Source of the DNA: Limnothrix sp. BL-A-16
GTDB lineage: Bacteria; Cyanobacteriota; Cyanobacteriia; CACIAM-69d
DNA length: 32,000 bases
Direction: 5' to 3'
Assembly: GCA_041937175.2 (NCBI GenBank)
Contig: CP166615.1
Coordinates: 3,167,547 to 3,199,546, forward strand
The notes under the pieces are model-generated. The model was given only the letters and a program-made list of their open reading frames with translations. It had not been told where the DNA came from and made no database searches. A program made the position numbers and the translations under genes. Within the stretch, counting starts at the first letter, position 1, and every line of letters starts with the position of its first letter. Below, piece after piece: positions 3,555 through 21,573 of this stretch.

Positions 3555-3642
3555 AACCACCCTAGACAAGGAGCTTAAGCCCCTTGCCCCTACGATCCAA
3601 CCACCCTAGACAAGGGGCTTAAGCCCCTTGCCCTTACGATCC
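3555..3642. repeat. Two tandem 44-bp repeats (42/44 identical), each with a palindromic core
   Basis: Copies at 3555-3598 and 3599-3642 read AACCACCCTAGACAAGG(A/G)GCTTAAGCCCCTTGCCC(C/T)TACGATCC. Copy 2 contains the perfect 20-bp palindrome CAAGGGGCTTAAGCCCCTTG at 3611-3630. Confidence 0.8.
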
Positions 3643-3772
3643 GCCAACGGTGGAATAAGGGTTTCAGGCGATATGACGACAAGCCCTAATCACTGCAAAG
3701 GTTAGTCACCACAAAGGTTAATCAACGGCTGAATGATTGCTGAAAGGCAGATTAACCTTTTGCCCTCAGTCC

Positions 3773-4945
3773 CTACCAAGGATTGCTGAAAGTGCGCACC
3801 GGTCGCCCGCCGATGTTGGATTGGGATGGCTGCGTCACCGGTTCCGGAGCCACGGCCGGTTGGCTGGGCGGCGGGGCGATCGCGGGGCTGTTGGGAACCG
3901 TGTTGTAACCGGCGTTTAAGGGTACACCGGAACCCGTGGAGCCATAGCCTGGCATCGGAGCCGTTGGGATTTTGGGCAAAGTGCTGCCCGCCGTTGCCGG
4001 GCCGGAGCCATAGCTGGGATAGCCCGTGGGACTGCCAAAGCCGCCATAGTTCACATTGCCGGCCCCAGCATTGGGAACCGCCACATTCGGCAGTGTGGGA
4101 TTGGTTGTGCCGCTGCCGATGGTGGGAGTTGTGCCGCTGGAACCCGTGACGGGAACCGTGGGCGTTGTGGTGTTGGTGCTGCTGCTGGGGGTTGTGCCGC
4201 TGGAATCGCTGCTGCCATCACCATTGTTCAGGTAGAGGCGATCGAGCGCCGCTTGCAGGGGACTCACGGGCTGGCCGGTGGTTGTTCCATTGCCATTGAG
4301 CATGGTCGAGCTGCCTCCCACACCGTAGCTGCTGCCATTGGCATTGGCGGCCCGAGGGTCATTGCTCAAAAATTGATTCACCGCCCTTGGGGCCAAACCA
4401 CTGCCCTCGCCACCGCGCGATCGACTGCCCACGGGGCCCGCCGAACCACCACTGAGCAACTGCAAAATATCCGCTAGCTCAGAGTTGGCGTTGTTCGCCG
4501 TTTTTTCTTCATCCTGGCGATCGCGTTTATTGCGATTGTTCCGGCGCTGGTTTTGGGGCAGGGTTAGCTCCGTTGCCAACACATTAGACGAGTCAATATC
4601 AGCCGCCACCGAATCATCATCGGGCTGAGACTCCAGAATCGAGAGCCAATCTACCTTGTCCGGCTCAGGTTCGGCATTAGTCCAGCGATCGGGATTTTTC
4701 CAAAACACCCAAGCCCCCAAGGTTGCCATCGAAATCGCCATGGCCGGCAACCAGATGAAGGGTTCGCCCAACCAGCGCAGATTTCTGAGCACCAGCGTTA
4801 GGCTGAAGGTTTCGCGCAATTGCGACACCCAACCCTCATGGGTTCCTGGCTCATGGGTTCCTGAGTGCGCCTTGTGGCCGTGATGACCCGCCGGGTGATG
4901 ACTCGATGGGTGATGGCCCGATGAGTGATGGTGATGCTCGGACAT
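3773..4945 (-). CDS. Hypothetical single-pass membrane protein with a His-rich N-tail and a Gly/Ser/Thr/Pro-rich low-complexity C-terminal region
   Basis: The N-terminus MSEHHHHSSGHHPSSHHPAGHHGHKAHSGTHEPGTHEGW has about 15 His in 40 residues. One hydrophobic helix follows (FIWLPAMAISMATLGAWVFW), then about 300 aa of low complexity. An alternative GTG start lies at 4957. No family recognised. Confidence 0.6.
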   Translation of the reverse strand: MSEHHHHSSGHHPSSHHPAGHHGHKAHSGTHEPGTHEGWVSQLRETFSLTLVLRNLRWLGEPFIWLPAMAISMATLGAWVFWKNPDRWTNAEPEPDKVDWLSILESQPDDDSVAADIDSSNVLATELTLPQNQRRNNRNKRDRQDEEKTANNANSELADILQLLSGGSAGPVGSRSRGGEGSGLAPRAVNQFLSNDPRAANANGSSYGVGGSSTMLNGNGTTTGQPVSPLQAALDRLYLNNGDGSSDSSGTTPSSSTNTTTPTVPVTGSSGTTPTIGSGTTNPTLPNVAVPNAGAGNVNYGGFGSPTGYPSYGSGPATAGSTLPKIPTAPMPGYGSTGSGVPLNAGYNTVPNSPAIAPPPSQPAVAPEPVTQPSQSNIGGRPVRTFSNPW

Positions 4946-8094: not shown

Positions 8095-8430
8095 CTAAGC
8101 TGCGCCGTAGTTGGTGTATTGGCGTTTGTAGGGTGGTTGGAGACCGAGAATAATGTCTTCTCGGGGGACACCCATCGCGATTAATTCTTCGGCGGGATTT
8201 TGGTCGGTTAGGTTTTGTTGGAGCCAGATTTTGCCGTCTTTGATGTCGAAATGAATGATGCAGTGATAGACGCGGTTGAACTCTTGCCAACCGACGTTCA
8301 TCCATTGGTAATGGTCGCGATCGCTATCAAAGATCAATTGCACTTCGACGTTTTCTGCTACGGGATCATCTTGGGCATATTGGCTCAGTAGGGTTTGAAT
8401 ATATTGTCGGTATTGGGCTATTTTTTCCAT
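8095..8430 (-). CDS. xisI: XisI-family protein
   Basis: 111 aa with DRDHYQWMNVGWQ...IHFDIKDGKIWLQQN...ELIAMGVPREDIILG, typical of XisI. It overlaps xisH by 13 nt. Confidence 0.85.
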   Translation of the reverse strand: MEKIAQYRQYIQTLLSQYAQDDPVAENVEVQLIFDSDRDHYQWMNVGWQEFNRVYHCIIHFDIKDGKIWLQQNLTDQNPAEELIAMGVPREDIILGLQPPYKRQYTNYGAA

Positions 8431-8834
8431 TGGATGATCCTCTCCTGAGCTGGATCGTAAACAACAATTGAGACTTGATACCGCTCTACGGCTGCCTGAG
8501 TGAATTCGTATTGAAAAAATGTTTGGTAAGAATCAACTGGAACGGCTAGATAGAGGGTTCGTTCTGGTTCGATCGATTCTAGGGCAAGGCGATAGCTGAG
8601 GAATTGGCCGAGAGCAGCATAGAAGTCTGTGACGGCGGAAGGGTTCAGAAAGCTTTTGATTTCGACGGCGATTTTTTCACCGGATCGTTCTGCGGCGAGT
8701 AGTCGTTCTGCGGCGAGATCAACGCGAAAGTTAACATTGCCAAATTTGAATCTGAGGGGATCATCAGTAATCACCCATTGTTCTTTTTCTAGGGCGTGTT
8801 TAACGGCTTCGTGGAACAGATCTTTGGCAGCCAT
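8418..8834 (-). CDS. xisH: XisH-family (endonuclease-like) protein
   Basis: 138 aa with MAAKDLFHEAVKHALEKEQWVITDDPL...VDLAAERLLAAER...IAVEIKSF, typical of XisH. Confidence 0.85.
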   Translation of the reverse strand: MAAKDLFHEAVKHALEKEQWVITDDPLRFKFGNVNFRVDLAAERLLAAERSGEKIAVEIKSFLNPSAVTDFYAALGQFLSYRLALESIEPERTLYLAVPVDSYQTFFQYEFTQAAVERYQVSIVVYDPAQERIIQWKK

Positions 8835-8994
8835 AGACGTTGGGCAGAGTTACCGAATTTTAGCATTCCGATCCGGCTGCGTCTGGGTTTGAGGCAGGGC
8901 GATCGCTTGCTCCGGTTGGCGGTTAGCTAAAATGGTGGGGAGCTAGTTTAGCGCTGTCGAGGTTGGGGATACATTCACGGGTTGGAGGTTGTCG

Positions 8995-9237
8995 ATGCAA
9001 ATCACGATTACTTTGCCGCCGGATTTGGAGGGATATTTGCTGCGTCAGGCGGCTCAGACTGACCTTCCTTTGCCGTTGATTGTGCTACAGATTCTTCGGC
9101 AACTGATCCAGATGCCACCGGGTGTTACGACTCAGTGGCCGGAGGCTGTTTTGAATTATGAGCCAGATCCCGATTTCCCTGAGTTTGAGTCCTATCGTAA
9201 TGAGTTGATTGATCCCCAAGAAATAGAGTTATTTTGA
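8995..9237 (+). CDS. Putative type II antitoxin partner of VapC
   Basis: Small acidic 80-aa ORF. ATG at 8995 lies 7 nt after GGAGG (8984-8988); the track start at 8989 is TTG. Its stop overlaps the vapC start by 4 nt (ATGA). The family itself is not recognised. Confidence 0.6.
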   Translation: MQITITLPPDLEGYLLRQAAQTDLPLPLIVLQILRQLIQMPPGVTTQWPEAVLNYEPDPDFPEFESYRNELIDPQEIELF

Positions 9238-9644
9238 TGCGCTATCTTTTGGATACTTGCGTCATCAGTGACTTTGTTAAGGGTGATGCACCAACAATAA
9301 TTCGGTTTCGGAATACGCCCCCGACGGATATTGCAATTTCGGCAATTACGGTGATGGAGTTACGTTATGGTTTGGCGATTAATCCACAACGCGCAGGGAA
9401 GGTTGAACCAATAATTTCTGACATTCTGGCATCTGTAACCATATTGCCATTTGGACTGGCTGAAGCGGAAAGATCGGCTGAGGTTCGGGCTATTTTGAAA
9501 TCACAGGGTCAACCGATCGGGGCTTATGATGTGTTGATTGCGGCGACGGCGCTTGCACATCAATTAATTATGGTGACTGCTAATCAGCGAGAGTTCGAGC
9601 GAGTTCCTGGGCTATCGATTGAAAATTGGCGACAGGCAGATTAG
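9234..9644 (+). CDS. vapC: PIN-domain ribonuclease toxin VapC
   Basis: 136 aa. YLLDTCVISD supplies the first acidic residue of the PIN domain. Later motifs are ITVMEL, AYDVLIAATA and TAN. Confidence 0.85.
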   Translation: MMRYLLDTCVISDFVKGDAPTIIRFRNTPPTDIAISAITVMELRYGLAINPQRAGKVEPIISDILASVTILPFGLAEAERSAEVRAILKSQGQPIGAYDVLIAATALAHQLIMVTANQREFERVPGLSIENWRQAD

Positions 9645-9770: not shown

Positions 9771-12700
9771 ATGGACGAGCAACGACTTCAGGCTTATTTG
9801 CAATTGATTCAGCAGTTGTTGGCTTGTCCGGCGGGGGAAGAGGAAAGCGTTTTGCAAGCCCAGGTGGAGTTGGTGGATGCGGGGCTGGTGGAGGTGATGG
9901 GACAGGTAGCTGACCTAATGGTGGAAAAAGGAGACAACAACGCCGGCCGATTGCGACAGTTTTCTGAGCAGGTGGCGCAGGCGTTGGGGCTGGAGTCAGC
10001 GACGGCGAGTGGTGCGGAGGATATGGATCAGTTTGTGGGGGAGGTGATGGAGCAGATTCTCCAAACCCAAGGCAATCCAGCGCAGGTTTATGGGTTTTGG
10101 CAGGTCGATTTAAATCGATTTAACGAAGCATTTTTGGCAACGCTGCCTATCACTTTTCGCCGCTTGATCGGGCAAAATGACCCCAAACTAATTGCGGCTA
10201 TCTTTGCTAGGTTTGGAAACTTGATTCAACAATTTCCAATCGGTTCGCATTGGTTGAATCTGGAATGTGCAATTACGGTCTACGAACAGGCGCTGATGAT
10301 CTACACCTGCGAAGCGCTTCTCGAAGATTGGGCCATGACCCAAAACAACCTGGCAACTGCTTACAGCAATCGAATCCGAGGGGAGAAGGCGGACAACCTA
10401 GAACTAGCGATCACCGCCTACAAACGGGCGCTGGAAGTCCTCACCCGCGATGCTTGTCCTGAAAATTGGGCAGGGACTCAAAACAATCTGGCCAATGCTT
10501 ACAGCAATCGAATTCGAGGGGAGCGGGCGGACAACCTAGAACTAGCAATCACCGCCTACAAACGGGCGCTGGAAGTCTACACCCGCGATACTTTTCCTGA
10601 AAATTGGGCCATGACTCAAAACAACCTGGGAGAAGCTTACCGCTCTCGAATCCGAGGGGAGAAGGCGGACAACCTAGAACTAGCGATCACCGCCTACAAA
10701 CGGGCACTGGAAGTCAGAACTCGCGATGCTTTTCCCAAAGATTGGGCAGGGACTCAAAACAATCTAGCCAATGGTTACGGTGCTCGAATCCGAGGGGAAC
10801 GGGCGGACAACTTAGAACTAGCGATCACCGCTTACAAACGAGCGCTGGAAGTCTACACCCGCGATACTTTTCCTGAAAATTGGGCCATGACCCAAAACAA
10901 CTTAGCAACTGCCTACAGCAATCGAATCTGCGGGGAACGGGCGGATAACCTAGAACTAGCGATCACCGCTTACAAACGAGCGCTGGAAGTCCGTACCCGC
11001 GAGGCGTTTCCTGAAGCTTGGGCAGCGACCCAAAACAACCTGGCAAATGCTTACAGCGATCGCATCAGAGGAGAACGGGCGCACAACCTAGAACAAGCGA
11101 TCACCGCTTACGAACGGGCGCTGGAAGTCTACACCCGCAATGCTTTTCCCGAAAATTGGGCCATGACCCAAAACAACCTGGGAGAAGCTTATCGCGATCG
11201 CATCCGAGGGGAGCGGGCAGACAACCTGGAGCGAGCAATCATCGCTTGCGAACGGGCGCTGGAAGTCTATGCCCGCGATACTTTTCCACAAAATTGGGCC
11301 ATGACCCAAAACAACTTAGCAACTGCCTACAGCAATCGAATCTGCGGGGAGCGGGCGGACAACCTAGAACTAGCGATCACTGCCTACAAACGGGCGCTGG
11401 AAATCTACACCCGCAATGCTTTTCCACAAGATTGGGCAGGGACTCAAAATAACCTGGCAAATGCTTACGTCGCTCGTATCCAAGGGGAACGGGCAGATAA
11501 CCTGGAGCAGTCGATCGCCGCCTACAAACGGGCGCTGGAAGTCTACACCCATGATGCTTTTCCTGAACAATGGGCAATGACCCAAAACAACCTGGCAAAT
11601 ACTTACAGCCAGAGAATTCGAGGGGAACGGGCGGACAACCCGGAACGGGCGATCACTGCTTACGAACAGGCGCTGGAAGTCCGCACCCGCGAGGCGTTTC
11701 CCGAAGATTGGGCAGCGACCCAAAACAACCTAGCAATTGCTTACCGCGATCGCATCCGAGGGGAACGGGCGGATAACCTCGAACAAGCGATCGCTGCCTA
11801 CGAACGGGCGCTGGAAGTCTTCACCCGCGAGGCCTTTCCGAATGACTGTCGCCGTACTTCTCGATCGCTCGGCGATCTTCAAAGCGAGTTGCAAAACTGG
11901 GATGCTGCGACCCAAGCCTATGGGCAAGCCCTCGCCGCTGCGGAAGATCTCTACCAAGCCTGCACCCTGCTCGACAGCCAAGCCGGTGAGCTAAAAGCAA
12001 CCGCCAACCTGCCCCGCCGCGCCGCCTATGCCTACGCCAAAGCCAGTCAACTCGCCACAGCCCTCGAAACGATCGAACGGGGCCGCGCCCGGGGCCTCAG
12101 CGAACGACTCCAACGCGATCGCGCTGACCTCGCACAACTCCAACAACAGCGCCCTGACCTGTTCGATCGCTACCGCGACATCACCAACCAACTGCAAAAC
12201 CTGGAAAGCCAACAACGCGACCAGCAAGTCCGCGATCGCCAAGCCATCACCCCCGAACAACACCGCAACGAAGCCCAAAGACTCCGCCAGGAATTGACCG
12301 AGGCGATCGCCCAAATTCGCCAAGTCCCCGGCTATGAAACCTTCCTGCAAGCACCCAGCCTCACCGAAATTCAACAAAACCTCAGCACCGAAGCACCCAC
12401 CGTCTACCTGATCCCCACCCCCAACGGCAGCCTCGCCCTAATCGCCACGCCCCAGGCGATCGCCCCCCTGTGGCTCGATGATTTCCCCGAAGCCACCCTC
12501 ACCGACTTGGTGCAAACCTGGCTCCAGGCTGACAGAGAGTCCAAAGTGGCTAACTATGAGTACAGTAAAGACCCGGAATCACTAGCCAAGATGCAGACCC
12601 GAAATGAAAAGCGGGAGCAGTGGCACAACGCGATCGACCAGGGAACCCGCCAACTGTGGGACAACCTAATGGCTCCCCTAATCGATCGGCTCAAACAACA

Positions 12701-13553
12701 CAACCACACCCAAGCGATCCTGATTCCCACCGGCTTGCTCGGATTGTTGCCCCTCCATGCCGCCTGGACAGAAGACCCCAGCCGCCCCACCGGCCGCCGC
12801 TACGCCCTCGATGAGCTGACCTTCACCTACGCCCCCAACGCCCAATCCCTCGTGGCCGCCCGGGCGGTGGCGGATGCCTTGCGGAGCAATATCGCCCAAC
12901 AATTCCCCGACAGCCACCTCGATTCGATCCTGGCGATCGACAATCCCCGCCAAGACCTGCCCAGCTCCGAACGGGAAGTCACGGCCGCCGTCAAAACCTT
13001 CCCCCACCCCACCGTCCTGCGCCACGAAAAAGCCACCACCGCAACCGTTGCCGACAACCTGGGTCAACAGGCGATCGTCCATTTCTCCTGCCACGGAACC
13101 GCCAACTTCAACGAACCCCTCAACAGCGGCCTGCTAATGAGCGATGACCTGTTGACCCTGCGCGAGCTATTTAACCTCAAGCTCACCGAAGGCAACAAAC
13201 GCGGCATCCGGCTCGCCGTCCTCTCCGCCTGCGAAACGGGACTCCCCGGCCTGGACTTAGCCGACGAGGCGATCGGCTTGCCCGTCGGACTGTTGCAAGC
13301 AGGCGTGGCCGGGGCGATCGCCTCGCTCTGGGCCGTGAGCGACCTCAGCACCATGATTCTGCTCACCAAGTTCTACGACCTCTGGCGCAACGATCGCCTC
13401 ACCCCACCCGCAGCCCTCCGCCAAGCCCAACAATGGCTCCGCAACGCGACCCTTTCCGAAATTCGCCAGCTCACCGGCATCAGTTTCCGAGGCGCTGAAC
13501 ACCCATTTGCCCACCCCTACTACTGGGCAGGCTTCAGCTACACCGGCATATAA
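9771..13553 (+). CDS. TPR-repeat / CHAT-domain (caspase-like peptidase) protein
   Basis: 1260 aa. It has the cyanobacterial-type N-terminus (RLQAYLQLIQQLLACPAGEEESVL), then 12 x 46-aa TPR-like repeats, then a coiled-coil linker. The C-terminal CHAT domain keeps the catalytic dyad contexts HFSCHG (His codon 13092-13094) and LSACETG (Cys codon 13230-13232). Confidence 0.9.
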   Translation: MDEQRLQAYLQLIQQLLACPAGEEESVLQAQVELVDAGLVEVMGQVADLMVEKGDNNAGRLRQFSEQVAQALGLESATASGAEDMDQFVGEVMEQILQTQGNPAQVYGFWQVDLNRFNEAFLATLPITFRRLIGQNDPKLIAAIFARFGNLIQQFPIGSHWLNLECAITVYEQALMIYTCEALLEDWAMTQNNLATAYSNRIRGEKADNLELAITAYKRALEVLTRDACPENWAGTQNNLANAYSNRIRGERADNLELAITAYKRALEVYTRDTFPENWAMTQNNLGEAYRSRIRGEKADNLELAITAYKRALEVRTRDAFPKDWAGTQNNLANGYGARIRGERADNLELAITAYKRALEVYTRDTFPENWAMTQNNLATAYSNRICGERADNLELAITAYKRALEVRTREAFPEAWAATQNNLANAYSDRIRGERAHNLEQAITAYERALEVYTRNAFPENWAMTQNNLGEAYRDRIRGERADNLERAIIACERALEVYARDTFPQNWAMTQNNLATAYSNRICGERADNLELAITAYKRALEIYTRNAFPQDWAGTQNNLANAYVARIQGERADNLEQSIAAYKRALEVYTHDAFPEQWAMTQNNLANTYSQRIRGERADNPERAITAYEQALEVRTREAFPEDWAATQNNLAIAYRDRIRGERADNLEQAIAAYERALEVFTREAFPNDCRRTSRSLGDLQSELQNWDAATQAYGQALAAAEDLYQACTLLDSQAGELKATANLPRRAAYAYAKASQLATALETIERGRARGLSERLQRDRADLAQLQQQRPDLFDRYRDITNQLQNLESQQRDQQVRDRQAITPEQHRNEAQRLRQELTEAIAQIRQVPGYETFLQAPSLTEIQQNLSTEAPTVYLIPTPNGSLALIATPQAIAPLWLDDFPEATLTDLVQTWLQADRESKVANYEYSKDPESLAKMQTRNEKREQWHNAIDQGTRQLWDNLMAPLIDRLKQHNHTQAILIPTGLLGLLPLHAAWTEDPSRPTGRRYALDELTFTYAPNAQSLVAARAVADALRSNIAQQFPDSHLDSILAIDNPRQDLPSSEREVTAAVKTFPHPTVLRHEKATTATVADNLGQQAIVHFSCHGTANFNEPLNSGLLMSDDLLTLRELFNLKLTEGNKRGIRLAVLSACETGLPGLDLADEAIGLPVGLLQAGVAGAIASLWAVSDLSTMILLTKFYDLWRNDRLTPPAALRQAQQWLRNATLSEIRQLTGISFRGAEHPFAHPYYWAGFSYTGI
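10251..11906 (+). repeat. 12 in-frame tandem 138-bp (46-aa) coding repeats inside the CHAT gene
   Basis: The unit is ADNLELAITAYKRALEV.TRD.FPENWA.TQNNLANAYSNRIRGER. Unit starts fall exactly every 138 bp (10251, 10389, 10527 ... 11769). Several units are near-identical at the DNA level. Confidence 0.9.
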
Positions 13554-13580
13554 TCAAATCAACCAACTTGCCATCTCAGA

Positions 13581-13850
13581 ATGCCAGTTCTGTCAATGTT
13601 TTATGGGCTAATTGTTTCCATGTACTTCATGGATAACAAAGAGCACAAACGCCCACACATCCATATTTCCTATCAAGGCAAAGAAGCGGTTTTCAGTATT
13701 CCAGAGGGCGAAGTTCTATCGGGCAGCTTACCTCGAAAACAAACTCGACTAGCACAAGCATGGATTGAAATTCATGCAGATGAACTGGTCGCAAACTGGG
13801 AGCTGGCGATCGCTGGTCAACCACTTTACAAAATTGAACCACTGAAATAA
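13581..13850 (+). CDS. DUF4160-family small protein
   Basis: 89 aa. MPVLSMFYGLIVSMYFMDNKEHKRPHIH is the characteristic DUF4160 N-terminus. It starts 27 nt after the CHAT gene stop. Confidence 0.8.
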   Translation: MPVLSMFYGLIVSMYFMDNKEHKRPHIHISYQGKEAVFSIPEGEVLSGSLPRKQTRLAQAWIEIHADELVANWELAIAGQPLYKIEPLK

Positions 13851-14116
13851 TGATGAATCCTAGGGTTGTCCATGTACTTGCGCGTGATCACTACAAACTT
13901 GAAATCCAGTTCACCAATCAAGAAGTGCGAATTTATGACTGCTCAACACTTTTAGATTTTGGCGTATTTCAAGAACTCAGAGACGAAACTTACTTCCGGA
14001 AAGTCAAGGTATTTAACGGCACAGTTACTTGGCCAAATGAGCAAGATATTTGCCCAGATACGCTCTATCTAGACTCTATCCCTTTACCGATTGCAGCCCA
14101 ACCGTTGTCAGCATGA
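13850..14116 (+). CDS. DUF2442-family small protein
   Basis: 88 aa. It is the usual partner of DUF4160, and its ATG overlaps the preceding TAA by 1 nt. A VTWPNEQDICPDTLY-type C-terminus is present. Confidence 0.75.
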   Translation: MMNPRVVHVLARDHYKLEIQFTNQEVRIYDCSTLLDFGVFQELRDETYFRKVKVFNGTVTWPNEQDICPDTLYLDSIPLPIAAQPLSA

Positions 14117-14547
14117 ACACCACCTACGATCGCGATTTCTATGCTTGGACACAGGAGCAAATTGTGCTGCTGCAAAACCGAGATTTCGGGGCGATCGACC
14201 TCCCCAACTTAATCGAAGAACTCGCCGCCATGGGTCGCCAAGAACGTGAACAACTTGTTAACCGTTTAGGTGTATTGATTGGTCATCTATTGAAATGGCG
14301 CTATCAGCCTGATATGCGAACCAACTCCTGGATCGGTACAATTCGCGAACAGCGGCGACGGATTCAGCGCTTACTCAAAAATAATCCAAGCTTGCAGCCA
14401 TTTCTAGATGAAGCCTTCCGCGAAGCATATCTTGATGGGCGAGATCTGGCTATTCAAGATACTAACCTAGAGGATTCAGTCTTTCCAAAGGCTTCACCAT
14501 TTACGCTGGAATTTGTCCTTTCGGACAATTTAGAGGAATCAATCTAA
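14113..14547 (+). CDS. DUF29-family protein
   Basis: ATG at 14113 overlaps the DUF2442 stop (ATGA). YDRDFYAWTQEQIVLLQNRDF..IDLPNLIEELAAMGRQEREQL is the DUF29 signature. The track start at 14050 would overlap the previous gene by 67 nt and is rejected. Confidence 0.8.
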   Translation: MNTTYDRDFYAWTQEQIVLLQNRDFGAIDLPNLIEELAAMGRQEREQLVNRLGVLIGHLLKWRYQPDMRTNSWIGTIREQRRRIQRLLKNNPSLQPFLDEAFREAYLDGRDLAIQDTNLEDSVFPKASPFTLEFVLSDNLEESI

Positions 14548-14591
14548 TTATCGAAATCACCTTTAAAGGCTCCCTCTTTCCAAACTACTCC

Positions 14592-15047
14592 ATGCTCTAC
14601 ACCGACGAAGATCTACTTGAAGCTGCTCGCACCATTCGCAGCGAATTGCCAGATTTGTTGGATTCCGAAACCGCACAAAGCCTAGACGATCGCCTTGCTG
14701 AACTACTAAATCAAGTCCCCTTAGATTTGCGCGATCTACATTACGAAACCATCAGCGAGATCGCCACTCAAGTCGAAGAGTCTTTAAAAACACACGAGTC
14801 CACAAAGACTTGGCTAAAATCTTTTCTGATTGATTCATCCAATCACCAATGCCAAAGTTTTGAACCTCTTCCCGGTAATGCCAGTTACGTGGCAACCGAT
14901 AAATATATTTGTCCCCACGGCGACTATCGCTGGTCTCGGCGCAGCATTGGCCAACCGATTCCCCGCTGTCCAACCCATGATGTGCTCCTAATCCCGATCG
15001 CCGAATTTCAGCAGTTACGGTCTAGCTCATCGCAGGAGAACCCATGA
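14592..15047 (+). CDS. Hypothetical protein with an acidic helical N-domain and a C-terminal Cys/His zinc-ribbon-like motif
   Basis: 151 aa with an ATG start. CPHGDYRWSRRSIGQPIPRCPTH (CPH-x16-CPTH) sits near the C-terminus. The stop overlaps the next gene start by 4 nt. No family recognised. Confidence 0.6.
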   Translation: MLYTDEDLLEAARTIRSELPDLLDSETAQSLDDRLAELLNQVPLDLRDLHYETISEIATQVEESLKTHESTKTWLKSFLIDSSNHQCQSFEPLPGNASYVATDKYICPHGDYRWSRRSIGQPIPRCPTHDVLLIPIAEFQQLRSSSSQENP

Positions 15048-15973
15048 CTGCCAAGGTGCTCGAAGGTGCAGGCGGCAAGGTTGCAGAACAGTGGATTTCG
15101 AGTCTGCTGACTTCTGCCATTGTCTTTTGGGCTGGGGGCTTGGTGGCGGTTATTCAGCGATTTGGCTGGCAACCCTTCACGGACTGGTTCACCAAACAGC
15201 CGGAGCCATTACAGTTGGCTTTGTTGGTCGCTGTATTGGGTGGAGCGATCGCCTCAGCCGCCGTTGTTGAGCGATTTCAACTAATGGCTTTACGCGGTCT
15301 AGAGGGCTATTGGCATCCTATCTTTAATGGCTTGAAAGCTCGATTAATTCGTCAGCAGATCAAGAATAAAGGAAAGCTTGAAGCACAGTTTCAAGACTTA
15401 GATAACCGCCCAAGACGCACCAGTCGCGATCGCCAATTACGCATCAAGCTCGATCGCCAACTCAGTGATTTTCCCACCCAAGATATTGATATTATGCCCA
15501 CGCCATTGGGAAATATCTTGCGGGCAGCGGAGTTACGATCGCTCGATAAATATGGGCTGGATGCGGTGATTTGTTGGCCGCGATTGTGGTTGTTATTACC
15601 CGAGTCTGCCAAAGCAGATTTACAGGCAGCGCGGGCCGAGCTGAACGCGATGGCTCGGCTGTGGATCTGGAGTTGGCTATTTTTGGTTTGGGTATTCTGG
15701 GCTTGGTGGGCAGCCCCGATCGCCATTATTTCGGCGTGCTTTGCCTATCACTGGGCGATCGCGGCGGCCAAAACCTATGGCGACTTGATCGAAGCCAGTT
15801 TTGATCTTTATCGTGGCTTGCTCTACGAGGCTTTGCGATTACCCTTTCCGAAGCAAGCAGACCAAGAACCAGCCGCCGGACGGATGTTAACTCAATATCT
15901 TTGGCGCGGTACTTTGCCAGAGTCCTACAAATTCATTGCAACTTCAGAAGTTTCTCCAGTCACTGATCAGTAG
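15044..15973 (+). CDS. Hypothetical 4-TM membrane protein
   Basis: 309 aa. AGGAG at 15034-15038 lies 5 nt before the ATG. Two N-terminal hydrophobic helices (about residues 15-38 and 57-77) are followed by a charged roughly 120-aa loop, a Trp-rich helical hairpin (LWIWSWLFLVWVFWAWWAAPIAIISACFAYHWAIAAA), and a soluble tail. No family recognised. Confidence 0.65.
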   Translation: MTAKVLEGAGGKVAEQWISSLLTSAIVFWAGGLVAVIQRFGWQPFTDWFTKQPEPLQLALLVAVLGGAIASAAVVERFQLMALRGLEGYWHPIFNGLKARLIRQQIKNKGKLEAQFQDLDNRPRRTSRDRQLRIKLDRQLSDFPTQDIDIMPTPLGNILRAAELRSLDKYGLDAVICWPRLWLLLPESAKADLQAARAELNAMARLWIWSWLFLVWVFWAWWAAPIAIISACFAYHWAIAAAKTYGDLIEASFDLYRGLLYEALRLPFPKQADQEPAAGRMLTQYLWRGTLPESYKFIATSEVSPVTDQ

Positions 15974-18973: not shown

Positions 18974-19471
18974 ATGTTTGACCAAAACGAGTTAGCCAAT
19001 CTTGAGAAAAATATCAAGCGCCTTAAGCAGCAGTTAGCGGGCAAACGCGACACCCTGGTCACGATCGCTTCAGACGAAAAAGTACGGATTCGGCAGCAAA
19101 TTGAAGATCTACGCTCCGAGATCAACGGCTTGGAGCGGGAATATTGGGAACTGCTGCATCAGCGATCGATCAGCTTTGAGCCGTCGGAGGATGAAGCTGA
19201 ACCGATCGTGGCGGAATGGGTTGAGAAAGCCAATCAGTTAGAGACGAATCCGCCCGCCAACGTGCCTGCTGAGATTTTGCAGCAGGTGCAGGCGGTGGCC
19301 AAACGGTTGGATCAGCCGGGTCAATCGGCTGCGATCAAGGTGAAGGGGATGATTTCGGCGTTGCCACCATTTTTCTCGGTGGGCATTGAGACCGAATTGG
19401 ATGTGGCGGGATTTGTAAAAGGCAATTTCCCCACTTTTTGGAACTGGGCGGCGGCACTCGCAAAAAAGTAG
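18974..19471 (+). CDS. Hypothetical coiled-coil protein; possible detached or frameshift-linked N-terminal module of the downstream STAND NTPase
   Basis: 165 aa. GAGGAG lies 9 nt upstream of the ATG. The N-terminal heptad region is LEKNIKRLKQQLAGKRDTLVTIASDEKVRIRQQIEDLRSEINGLEREYWELL. The C-terminal aromatic/hydrophobic segment is ISALPPFFSVGIETELDVAGFVKGNFPTFWNWAAAL. The ORF ends ...GCA AAA AAG TAG. Confidence 0.65.
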   Translation: MFDQNELANLEKNIKRLKQQLAGKRDTLVTIASDEKVRIRQQIEDLRSEINGLEREYWELLHQRSISFEPSEDEAEPIVAEWVEKANQLETNPPANVPAEILQQVQAVAKRLDQPGQSAAIKVKGMISALPPFFSVGIETELDVAGFVKGNFPTFWNWAAALAKK

Positions 19472-21573
19472 ATGGCCCGGTTCCAACGCCGGGCCAAGAA
19501 CCGCCGACAAATTTGCAGGATCGGGGGGTCGATCGCGATCGCTTCTTTGGACGCGATGACGTATTGCAGGATTTGCACGATCGGTTGGGGCGATCGGATC
19601 GGGTGGCGGTGACGAGTGTGGCGGGCATGGGCGGCGTGGGCAAAAGTGAGCTGGCGGTGCAGTATGCGCGGTGGCGGCTGCGGGAGGGGGACTATCGCGG
19701 CGGGGTGGTGTGGCTGGCGGGGGAACGGGCGGGGATTGAGCTATTGGGGTTTGCGAAGGCGCAGTTTTTCCCGGATGTGGATTTGGCGCAGTTAGGCGAT
19801 TTACGCGAACAGTTGACGTTTATTTGGTCGCGTTGGCCGGTGCCTGAGGTTCCGCCGGAGTCGGTGCTGTTGGTGTTTGATGATGTGACGGATTACCGAT
19901 CGCAGGTGGCGGATCTGTTGCCGAGTGACAAGCGGTTTCGGGCGATCGTCACGACGCGGGAGCAGATCCAGGGGATCGATCGGTTGGATTTGGCGGTGCT
20001 GGCTCCGGCGGCTGCGTTGGACTTGTTGCGATCAATCGTTGGGGAAGCGCGGATCGCGGCGGAACCGGAGACGGCGAGCGAGATCTGTGAATGGCTGGGC
20101 TTTTTGCCGTTGGGTTTGGAGTTGGTGGGCTATTATCTCCAGCGCAAGCCGAATCTGTCGCTGGCAAAGCTGCTGGAACGGTTGAATGAGAAGCGTTTGG
20201 CGGCGAGGGCGTTAATCGATGTGCCGGTGACGCTGACGGCACAGCGGGGGGTCGCGGCGGCGTTTGAGTTGAGTTGGGAGGCGATCGGCGCGCAGGAGTG
20301 GGGCGAGTCGGCGCAGGCGTTGGCGATGCGGCTGAGTCTGTTTGCGGCGGCTCCGATTCCGTGGGGCTTGATGCAGGACTGTTGGGCGGCGGCGGATGAG
20401 GAGGAGTTGGAGGATTGGCGCGATGGGTTAGTGGCGTTGCATCTGATTGAGGATGTCACCGGGGAGCGCTATCGGTTGCATCCGCTGATTCGGGAGTTTT
20501 TTGCAGCGAAGTTGGCGGCGCGGGCGGAGGCGACAGCCTGGCGGACGGCGTTTGCGGTGACGTTGACGAAGATTGCGAGAACAATTCCGCAGACTGTGAC
20601 GCTGGAACAGCAAGCCCAGGTGCGCGAGGCAATGCCCCATCTGGAAGCCGCGACGGATTATTGCGACCTACTGAGCGATGATGATTGCGGCTGGCCGTTC
20701 ACTGGTTTAGCCCGGTTTTACGAAGCCCAAGGCCTGTTCGAGGATGCCGAGCGTTGCTCTCAGCATTGCCTCGATATGCGCGAAACCCGCTTCGGAGCCG
20801 ACCACCCTGATACCGCCACCAGCCTCAACAATTTGGCGGCATTGTATGAATCGCAAGGGAAATACGATCGCGCCGAACCGCTCTACCAACGCGCCTTAGA
20901 CATCAGAGAACAGCAACTGGGAGCCGACCCCCCCGCTACCGCCACCAGCCTCAACAATTTGGCGGGATTGTACCGATCACAAGGGAAATACGATCACGCC
21001 GAACCGCTCTTGCAACGCGCCTTAGCGATCAGGGAACGGCAACTGGGAGCCGACCACCCCCATACCGCCAGCAGCCTCAACAATTTGGCGCTTTTGTATA
21101 AATCGCAAGGGAAATACGATCGCGCCGAACCGCTCTACCAACGCGCCTTAGCGATCTATGAACGGCAACTGGGAGCCGACCACCCCAATACCGCCAGCAG
21201 CCTCAACAATTTGGCGCTTTTGTATAAATCGCAAGGGAAATACGATCGCGCCGAACCGCTCTACCAAAGCGCCTTAGACATCAGAGAACGGCAACTGGGA
21301 GCCGACCACCCCGATACCGCCGCCAGCCTCAACAATTTGGCGGTGCTGTATTTCTATCAAAATCGCTGGGGCGAGGCGGAGCGGTTGCTGGTGCGGGCGC
21401 TGCTGATTTGGGCGCAGGTGTTGGGCGAAGCGCATCCCGACACGCAAAGCTCGATTCAAAGCTTGTTCAGCCTAATCGGTGCAGCCCTGAACCAGGGACG
21501 CGCCGCCGAACTCTCCGACCACCCCGTCACCCAATCCATCCTGCAACAACTCACCACCCCACCCAACCCGTAG
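19438..21573 (+). CDS. NB-ARC (STAND P-loop NTPase) protein with C-terminal kinesin-light-chain-type TPR repeats
   Basis: The Walker A motif GMGGVGKS lies at 19624-19647, preceded by FFGRDDVLQDLHDRL. The Walker B context is LLVFDDV, followed by a helical/winged-helix region and then 42-aa TPR units. The 5' end is uncertain. The frame is open from 19390, with no ATG before the P-loop and only TTG candidates (19438, 19513) without an SD. See the frameshift finding. Confidence 0.85.
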   Translation: MELGGGTRKKVDGPVPTPGQEPPTNLQDRGVDRDRFFGRDDVLQDLHDRLGRSDRVAVTSVAGMGGVGKSELAVQYARWRLREGDYRGGVVWLAGERAGIELLGFAKAQFFPDVDLAQLGDLREQLTFIWSRWPVPEVPPESVLLVFDDVTDYRSQVADLLPSDKRFRAIVTTREQIQGIDRLDLAVLAPAAALDLLRSIVGEARIAAEPETASEICEWLGFLPLGLELVGYYLQRKPNLSLAKLLERLNEKRLAARALIDVPVTLTAQRGVAAAFELSWEAIGAQEWGESAQALAMRLSLFAAAPIPWGLMQDCWAAADEEELEDWRDGLVALHLIEDVTGERYRLHPLIREFFAAKLAARAEATAWRTAFAVTLTKIARTIPQTVTLEQQAQVREAMPHLEAATDYCDLLSDDDCGWPFTGLARFYEAQGLFEDAERCSQHCLDMRETRFGADHPDTATSLNNLAALYESQGKYDRAEPLYQRALDIREQQLGADPPATATSLNNLAGLYRSQGKYDHAEPLLQRALAIRERQLGADHPHTASSLNNLALLYKSQGKYDRAEPLYQRALAIYERQLGADHPNTASSLNNLALLYKSQGKYDRAEPLYQSALDIRERQLGADHPDTAASLNNLAVLYFYQNRWGEAERLLVRALLIWAQVLGEAHPDTQSSIQSLFSLIGAALNQGRAAELSDHPVTQSILQQLTTPPNP
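19462..19495 (+). promoter_or_regulatory. Candidate -1 programmed ribosomal frameshift cassette (slippery heptamer + stem-loop)
   Basis: A_AAA_AAG (19462-19468) is in the zero frame of the upstream ORF, immediately before its TAG (19469-19471). After a 5-nt spacer comes the hairpin GGCCCGG (19474-19480), loop TTCCAACG, CCGGGCC (19489-19495). The -1 frame is the NB-ARC reading frame. Confidence 0.4.
20794..21423 (+). repeat. 5 in-frame tandem 126-bp (42-aa) TPR coding repeats, plus degenerate flanking units
   Basis: The unit is GADHP.TA.SLNNLA.LY.SQGKYDRAEPLYQRAL.I.E.QL. Unit starts fall at 20794, 20920, 21046, 21172 and 21298. Units 3 and 4 are almost identical at the DNA level. Confidence 0.9.

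Follow-up and report, generated by a model that had tools for sequence, protein, structure and literature searches.

The window analysed here is a stretch of 32,000 nucleotides (nt) from Limnothrix sp. BL-A-16, and our subject is a block of six genes within it that begins with a gene for a TPR-CHAT protease (g1) and ends with a gene for a protein with four transmembrane (TM) segments (g6). An earlier reading of the letters only (the sequence-only reading) had taken this block for one six-gene unit. We suggest a different anatomy, in which the real unit almost certainly has three genes, i.e. those for the TPR-CHAT protease, g5 and g6, and is interrupted in this genome by cargo. A check of the open reading frames (ORFs) confirmed six co-directional genes on the + strand with junctions of +27, -1, -4, +44 and -4 nt in order from g1 to g6, and Pfam agreed with the domains that had been assigned to the first four, i.e. 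TPR-CHAT, DUF4160, DUF2442 and DUF29. The six genes and two features within g1 are:

9771 to 13553, + strand: g1, TPR-CHAT sensor protease of 1260 amino acids (aa), from ORF and Pfam
10280 to 11839, + strand: sensor array of TPR units in g1, with a 138-nt (46-aa) unit repeated 11.3 times in tandem (nucleotide identity 80%), from Tandem Repeats Finder
13092 to 13232, + strand: codons of the catalytic dyad of g1, H1108 (13092-13094, in HFSCHG) and C1154 (13230-13232, in SACETG)
13581 to 13850, + strand: g2, DUF4160 protein, putative DhiT-like toxin, from Pfam; probable inserted cargo
13850 to 14116, + strand: g3, DUF2442 protein, putative DhiA-like antitoxin, from Pfam; probable inserted cargo
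14113 to 14547, + strand: g4, DUF29 protein, from Pfam; probable inserted cargo
14592 to 15047, + strand: g5, soluble partner protein of 151 aa, from synteny with g6
15044 to 15973, + strand: g6, four-TM membrane protein of 309 aa, all-helical, from hydropathy and an AlphaFold2 (AF2) model

For g4 the frame allows a start as early as the TTG at 14050; we use the ATG at 14113, from which the -4 overlap results and at which the Pfam DUF29 model also begins. A promoter/terminator scan found no terminator-like site on the + strand within the block, which is compatible with its co-transcription; promoter-like sites in the block showed no excess over the shuffled expectation, and the scan was uninformative overall. 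Tight co-directional spacing as the sole argument for a six-gene unit is weak.

The neighbourhood was surveyed in 80 species-level (GTDB) genome loci around g6 homologues, whose ORFs were searched with the six window proteins. In 72 of these loci the flanks suffice to judge the protease neighbour, while they are too short in 8. A g5 homologue lies directly 5' of g6 in at least 72 of the 80 loci, typically with a gap of -4 to +45 nt; membership of the g5 family was set from the loci instead of from word-indexed searches, which returned 7 and then 49 homologues. Directly upstream of the g5-g6 pair, on the same strand and ending less than 2.5 kb away, 49 of the 80 loci carry a g1-like TPR-CHAT gene, and the resemblance of these linked proteins to g1 extends beyond the CHAT domain to the N-terminal and middle regions. 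In 29 of 47 CHAT-linked loci, at most 560 nt separate the CHAT stop from the g6 start, which leaves space for g5 alone. An insert-free example is the cassette of Calothrix sp. NIES-2100 (AP018178.1, L004/L009), in which the CHAT protein has 1105 aa, g5 127 aa and g6 290 aa. In 20 loci that lack a CHAT gene, a giant Peptidase_C14-nSTAND1/NACHT protein, usually with WD40 repeats, is encoded within 3 kb of the pair, mostly immediately after g6 and on the same strand. A CHAT or C14 protease gene adjoins g5-g6 in 69 of the 72 informative loci; the remaining three are protease-less, and in one of them g6 is pseudogenised. In a neighbour-joining tree of g6, the C14-linked proteins form a single clade nested within the CHAT-linked ones, pointing to one partner switch followed by co-inheritance. 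Thus, the claim of linkage made by the sequence-only reading stands for g1, g5 and g6 (49 of 80 loci) and fails for the three DUF genes, which are absent from the other cassettes but for that of one near-identical strain.

The coupling of g5 and g6 is also evident from two independent fusion proteins, P0251 (L086, 7001-8350) and P0279 (L087, 1188-2552), on contigs of 66-70% GC; these fusions predict proximity of the g5 C-terminus to the g6 N-terminus. At one fusion locus, TPR and CHAT genes lie 1.3 kb off in divergent orientation, and the L087 contig, which carries the second fusion, stops within a TPR-like gene. The zinc-knuckle part of g5 is degenerate in both fusions. A 311-aa "gene" beside the L086 fusion looks like a spurious ORF of high-GC DNA and was disregarded. 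Five loci (L058, L070, L071, L076 and L084) have two to three tandem TPR-CHAT paralogs in the upstream 10 kb before a single g5-g6 pair, an arrangement that resembles an array of alternative sensors with one common output. The cassettes are patchy in occurrence, several genomes have multiple copies (up to three), and filamentous cyanobacteria dominate the distribution. Two "Candidatus Competibacteraceae" metagenome-assembled genomes (MAGs) contain complete CHAT-g5-g6 cassettes or g5 homologues (L035, contig JAXMFU010000006.1; P0129; P0153), which suggests horizontal transfer outside cyanobacteria, or mis-binning. In Nostoc mirabile (L085, 10001-11037), the g6 homologue is split into three ORF fragments and the ORF upstream is a remnant of the g1 N-terminus and g5; here the cassette is in decay. 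In two Alkalinema loci (L022, 7777-9603, and L028), a protein of ~610-630 aa is encoded between the caspase-STAND gene and g5-g6, and the L022 copy, which was scanned, has S-layer-homology (SLH) domains.

Computationally, the three DUF genes are foreign to this cassette. Their families are recognised by Pfam at E 5e-25 (DUF4160 in g2), 2e-11 (DUF2442 in g3) and 2e-49 (DUF29 in g4). DUF4160/DUF2442 is an experimentally validated toxin-antitoxin (TA) domain pair, DhiTA of Dickeya dadantii (PMC8198452), and g2-g3 share with this type II system the domain pair, the toxin-first order and an overlap of a few nucleotides, here 1 nt. g2 scores 91.3 bits in the NCBIfam toxin_DhiT equivalog, just under the cut-off of 100, and its toxicity is putative; the likeness concerns the cargo, not the cassette. 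The GC content at third codon positions (GC3) is 0.389 in g2, 0.393 in g3 and 0.39-0.46 over the trio, as compared to 0.745 in the CHAT-coding half of g1, 0.47 in g5 and 0.53 in g6. In PHROGs, the trio has phage-encoded relatives (PHROG 14333 for g2, PHROG 11797 for g4), and no relatives of g1, g5 or g6 were found there. The three families are absent from the cassettes of the 80 surveyed loci; the one strain to depart from this is Limnothrix sp. FACHB-1083 (L001), near-identical to ours, where DUF2442 and DUF29 lie between CHAT and g5 and DUF4160 is lacking, so that DUF4160 inside the cassette is absent from L001 and from all 80 other loci. The association with the DUF trio is therefore confined to this genome, while that of CHAT with g5 and g6 is not. 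Genes of TA type occupy the same junctions elsewhere: MNT and HepT (L014, L039) or PIN/VapBC (L027, L034) at the CHAT-g5 junction, and Uma2 between g5 and g6 (L007, L010, L038, L052). TA genes are ubiquitous in cyanobacterial genomes. From these sequence comparisons we take the trio to be unrelated TA-type cargo that probably landed between g1 and g5 in this lineage.

Two further small proteins occur between CHAT and g5. One, of 205-210 aa and without a Pfam match, is found at 8852-9469 in L001 and at 8888-9520 in L. redekei (L006), and not in the window; in L. redekei it stands alone between CHAT and g5, and a DUF29 gene lies elsewhere in the locus. The other, of 86-89 aa and likewise without a Pfam match, recurs in several unrelated genomes with the pattern MQTRDRPIAI.N.TLNTL..ELG.ECQ...LNQLQLPNL... 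(ORFs and neighbours at 1031-1300 and 1519-1953 in L013, 9308-9568 in L054, 8133-8399 in L072 and 9488-9823 in L082). Just 5' of it, L013 and L054 have a lysine-rich partner ORF of 61-89 aa. The 86-89-aa protein may belong to the cassette as an additional accessory part, or it may be one more insert of TA-like kind.

In the protease g1, an N-terminal domain (aa 1-170) precedes the TPR array, which a helical middle region (aa ~720-960) connects to the CHAT domain (aa 960-1257). Pfam recognises the CHAT domain (PF12770) at E 2e-54, with 185 bits for a cut-off of 24, and TPR_10/TPR_12 repeats; it matches no NTPase family in g1 and, at E<=10, nothing meaningful in the N-terminal domain and the middle region. 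By hydropathy, g1 has no TM segment, one weak hydrophobic stretch falling inside the CHAT fold. The dyad described as intact is indeed so, with H1108 in HFSCHG and C1154 in SACETG, and its catalytic residues are kept among cassette-linked CHAT domains (His in 47 of 48, Cys in 48 of 48). The active-site dyad is under selection. The two halves of g1 differ in their history: between the window and L001, the C-terminal ~530 aa (middle and CHAT) are ~93% identical, while the N-terminal domain and TPR array are ~28-30% identical and differ in length (9771-11930 in the window versus 5238-6680 in L001). Because the protease half is constant, as are g5 (95% identical) and g6 (93%), in flanking DNA that is 85-95% identical, the sensor half was replaced or diversified; as judged from the alignments, this looks like a module swap or a very fast diversification limited to the sensor. 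A shared EAD- or Death-like adaptor domain between the g1 N-terminal domain and g5 was considered and rejected (hhalign probability 0.2%).

The small partner g5 has no TM segments by hydropathy. Its AF2 model (pLDDT 71) shows a domain of four helices at the N-terminus (aa 1-87) and a disordered linker with a conserved LPG motif (aa 85-101), followed by a small C-terminal beta knuckle with a Cys...Cys-x2-His pattern (aa 102-135). Across 38 homologues, G95, C107, C126 and H129 are invariant. The label "zinc-ribbon-like" that had been given to g5 is thus fair; because only three ligand positions are conserved, zinc binding by g5 is not established and is best called putative. Pfam (down to E<=10), PADLOC and NCBIfam hold no relatives of g5, and the 38 homologues scanned singly with Pfam gave no recurring family, only a few scattered non-significant zinc-finger matches. 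A Foldseek comparison of the g5 model with the PDB found no relative; in the runs with the g5 and g6 models, the best matches had E values of 0.24-1.0 with TM-scores of ~0.2-0.3.

That g6 is a four-TM protein, as proposed earlier, is borne out by four hydrophobic segments at about 18-36, 57-75, 202-220 and 223-241 and by a confident AF2 model, which is all-helical with 12 helices (pLDDT 90.5, pTM 0.83). The loop at 78-204 is basic, which places it on the cytoplasmic side; g6 is mostly cytoplasm-facing, with a large and highly conserved cytoplasmic helical domain. Among 67 sequences, 38 columns are invariant, including the motifs LEGYW, PT.LGN.LR..E, YGLD..CWPRLW and FD..R..LY. The family is large: a word-indexed search found more than 1172 homologues at ~50% identity, and a g6 profile searched against 1.84 billion representatives found 6247 clusters (50% identity) at E<=1e-3 and 741 at E<=1e-30. 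We found no relatives of g6 in Pfam (down to E<=10), PADLOC or NCBIfam and none in IMG/VR viral contigs. The g6 profile matched no PDB sequence, the model had no relatives in the PDB or BFVD by Foldseek (no PDB match at E<0.1), and the 67 homologues scanned singly with Pfam revealed no recurring family. The proposal that the block matches no described system therefore holds, in that g5 and g6 lack relatives in PADLOC, Pfam, NCBIfam, PDB and BFVD; PADLOC matched none of the six proteins, and in the literature searched we found no description of a g5-g6-like pair.

Several known systems are nonetheless related in logic. In bacterial gasdermin systems, as in 69 of 72 loci here, the gene for a caspase-fold protease adjoins that for a membrane-acting protein of ~300 aa, and the predicted logic is also alike, in that protease activation would free a membrane-damaging effector and result in abortive infection. 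By contrast, g6 is all-alpha and integral to the membrane, with four TM helices, and not a soluble protein of the beta-rich gasdermin fold, it has no gasdermin match in PADLOC or Pfam and no Foldseek match, the cassette has the obligatory third protein g5, and the g1 protease bears its own TPR sensor. The type III-E Craspase (Cas7-11 and Csx29, which cleaves Csx30) is also based on a TPR-CHAT protein with a His/Cys dyad, and in both cases the protease is predicted to cut a small dedicated protein encoded with it and thereby to free a downstream response. However, g1 scores 44.3 bits in the NCBIfam Csx29 model for a cut-off of 300, with the CHAT part alone aligning; the locus has no Cas7-11, CRISPR array, Csx30/Csx31 or RpoE, the 32-kb window contains no CRISPR-like repeat array and no giant Cas7-11-sized ORF besides g1, and g1 activation would come from binding of a TPR ligand rather than target RNA. 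In the mechanism proposed below, the g5-g6 cassette would follow the logic of gasdermin systems and of Craspase-Csx30 with unrelated proteins.

Kaur, Burroughs, Iyer and Aravind (2020, eLife) described caspase/STAND conflict systems with a bias toward multicellular bacteria, among them the EACC1-caspase pair (PMC7159879), and the dominance of filamentous cyanobacteria among our loci matches this bias. Their EACC1-caspase "System 4" likewise combines a constant gene for a small membrane protein with a caspase-superfamily protein bearing STAND/repeat modules, is enriched in multicellular bacteria and shares with our C14-linked loci the order of a 5' membrane gene and a 3' caspase gene (PMC7159879). 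However, the EACC1 domain has a single TM segment and occurs mainly in actinobacteria, while the pair here consists of the soluble g5 and the four-TM g6, for which Pfam gave no match at E<=10 and no recurring family among 38 and 67 members, respectively, scanned singly; and an N-terminal caspase in the 3' gene is true of the C14-STAND-WD40 relatives, while in the window the protease domain is a C-terminal CHAT encoded 5' of the pair. According to a 2026 Nature paper, it is in cyanobacteria that Apaf-1 has its nearest homologues, some of which carry a caspase at the N-terminus (PMC13581612). The C14-nSTAND1/NACHT-WD40 proteins beside g5-g6 in 20 loci have the architecture of these Apaf-1-like caspase-STAND-WD40 proteins; in the passages searched, that paper gives them as stand-alone STANDs and names no g5-g6-like partner (PMC13581612), and the window has a TPR-CHAT version without an NTPase. 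Similarly, g1 differs from STAND/NLR (Avs-like) sensors in that it has no P-loop STAND NTPase between effector and repeat sensor, a domain which the sister C14 proteins carry as nSTAND1/NACHT. In DdvA, a TPR-CHAT is coupled to membrane-embedded signalling in phage defence, with cleavage of a linker as the proposed switch (PMC11506125). In that protein, however, the TPR-CHAT is periplasmic and shares its chain with a TM helix and a zinc anti-sigma domain, and the output is an extracytoplasmic function (ECF) sigma factor, while g1 has no TM segment and no sigma-factor family is present among the neighbouring genes. The DdvA study notes that little is known about most TPR-CHAT proteins (PMC11506125), and a term search of Kaur et al. 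2021, on bacterial Death-like and TRADD-N domains, brought up nothing on CHAT proteases or TM effectors (PMC8195603).

The explanation that we favour, and consider probable overall, is that the locus is a CHAT-g5-g6 conflict cassette with inserted cargo, in which the protease acts on the membrane pair. In this model, the fast-evolving TPR array of g1 would recognise a ligand derived from an invader or from damage, and ligand binding would turn on the CHAT protease. The protease would then act on g5-g6, most likely by cutting g5 in its exposed linker or g6 in a cytoplasmic loop (aa ~100-150) that is variable and tolerates insertions. Once freed, g6 would depolarise or damage the membrane, and the infected cell of the filament would die or arrest. 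In the sister module, a caspase(C14)-STAND-WD40 (Apaf-1-like) protein replaces the TPR-CHAT protein. We infer the immune or cell-death role, the direction of the signal from protease to g5-g6, the cleavage event and the membrane damage from the arrangement of the genes; the fast-diverging TPR half, the tandem paralogs and the multiple cassettes point to immune-receptor-like behaviour of g1. Taken by itself, this mechanism of abortive infection or programmed cell death is held with some reserve, falling slightly short of an even chance. That g5-g6 represent a widespread and hitherto unrecognised class of caspase-controlled membrane death effectors, an all-alpha functional analogue of gasdermins that is wired to either TPR-CHAT proteins or the nearest bacterial relatives of Apaf-1 (caspase-STAND-WD40), is a more tentative idea still.

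Several points weigh against this explanation. Sequence does not tell whether the signal runs from the protease to g5-g6 or the other way, the mechanism and its role in the cell are computational predictions, and no component matches a known defence model in PADLOC. With ~50% identity across orders and 38 invariant positions, g6 is unusually conserved for a simple pore-forming effector, and this conservation could instead reflect an enzymatic, structural or sensing role. The g5 model, at its pLDDT of 71, is only moderately confident. CHAT and C14 protease classes are expected to differ in cleavage preference; the LPG motif is kept in CHAT-linked and C14-linked g5 alike, which weakens the case for cleavage at this motif. 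In addition, the GC3 values of g5 and g6 are unlike that of the CHAT-coding half of g1, and the three g5-g6 loci without a nearby protease argue that there is no strict dependence on an adjacent protease gene.

The conservation of g6 and its many invariant cytoplasmic polar residues are more what one would expect of a receptor or scaffold than of a protein that simply forms pores, and information may flow in reverse, i.e. g5-g6 would be a membrane sensor or anchor for envelope perturbation that activates or recruits the protease, which would in turn be the effector acting on cellular or viral proteins. Such a scheme resembles the "System 4" proposal, in which a small TM protein 5' of a caspase fusion is predicted to be an activating membrane sensor (Kaur et al. 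2020, PMC7159879), and is in line with promiscuous bacterial caspase-like effectors; the C14-linked relatives have exactly the order of g5-g6 and then caspase-STAND, and DdvA provides a case of a TPR-CHAT in membrane signalling rather than killing (PMC11506125). However, the proteases own classical sensors (TPR, or STAND with WD40) and these diverge sharply between close strains, whereas g5-g6 remain constant, and the variable tandem TPR-CHAT paralogs with a single g5-g6 pair are explained more economically if the pair is a common output. On balance, we regard the reversed direction as unlikely, although it deserves to be kept in mind.

A developmental or housekeeping function, either in the death of necridia for filament fragmentation or hormogonium release or in a HetF-like division or differentiation role at the membrane, is less probable again. 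It would suit the predominance of filamentous cyanobacteria and the chromosomal position of the window cassette by glmM-like and other housekeeping genes, and a study in Anabaena describes HetF, a CHAT-family protease, as a divisome component (PMC8406250). By contrast, the patchy presence with up to three copies per genome, the pseudogenised copy in L085, the swap of the sensor half between near-identical strains, the frequent TA-type insertions and the occurrence of the cassette in Competibacteraceae MAGs and high-GC bacteria speak against it; patchy, multi-copy, TA-riddled and sensor-swapping features are typical of accessory conflict genes and not of core developmental machinery. Finally, all six genes would form one system, with the protease linked to DUF4160, DUF2442 and DUF29 and the membrane protein as terminal effector, if their tight co-directional spacing, the lack of an internal + strand terminator-like site and the DUF2442 and DUF29 genes in the closest relative were taken at face value. 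Given that the trio is missing from the cassettes of all 80 other species-level loci, that the close relative lacks DUF4160 and has a different extra gene of 205 aa, that unrelated TA-type genes occupy the same junctions in other genomes, that the trio has sharply different GC3 and phage-family relatives, and that DUF4160/DUF2442 is an autonomous validated TA pair (PMC8198452), we consider this very improbable. In cyanobacterial operons, small TA-type inserts are frequent enough to give false "multi-gene systems" a real appearance.

We rate the CHAT-g5-g6 cassette as a putative protease-gated membrane effector system made from undescribed families. Filamentous cyanobacteria are very rich in TPR-CHAT and caspase-STAND proteins, and to our knowledge almost nothing is known about the targets of these proteins. 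A constant two-protein partner has now been found for one large TPR-CHAT/caspase-STAND subfamily, which makes the question of substrate and executioner directly testable. If g5-g6 are indeed caspase-controlled death effectors of the kind considered above, the whole route from sensor through caspase to membrane executioner would exist in multicellular cyanobacteria, made up of families without described homologues. Characterisation of g6 would bring a new class of effector or partner into prokaryotic caspase biology and would bear on the evolutionary link of bacterial and eukaryotic apoptosome-like immunity.

The cassette in the window is chromosomal and adjoins a glmM-like and other housekeeping genes; neighbouring genes include TA, XisHI, DUF3108-like and GlmM-like genes, and the nearest homologues of its proteins come from Limnothrix. 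The HIP1 octamer palindrome GCGATCGC occurs 48 times in the window versus ~1 expected, with zero copies in 13850-15047 (DUF2442, DUF29 and g5). An Rfam search over the whole window gave no matches. Upstream of a VapBC module, the window has a XisI/XisH pair (8095-8834, - strand) where L001 has DUF3368/UPF0175 (3577-4294), and the DNA on both sides of this spot is ~87% identical between the two strains; small-gene cargo is exchanged here, too, upstream of the cassette. Approximately 3.5 kb downstream of the cassette lies a gene for an NB-ARC (STAND)-TPR protein of 711 aa (19438-21573, + strand), whose start is overlapped by an ORF of 165 aa without a Pfam match (region 18974-21573). This ORF may be the N-terminal effector domain of the NB-ARC-TPR protein, separated from it through a frameshift or because the start was called wrongly. 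The NB-ARC-TPR gene contains a repeat array at 20794-21351 with 4.4 copies of a 126-nt unit at 89% identity. The presence of high-identity tandem DNA repeats in two separate repeat-sensor genes, i.e. this gene and g1, suggests ongoing repeat turnover.

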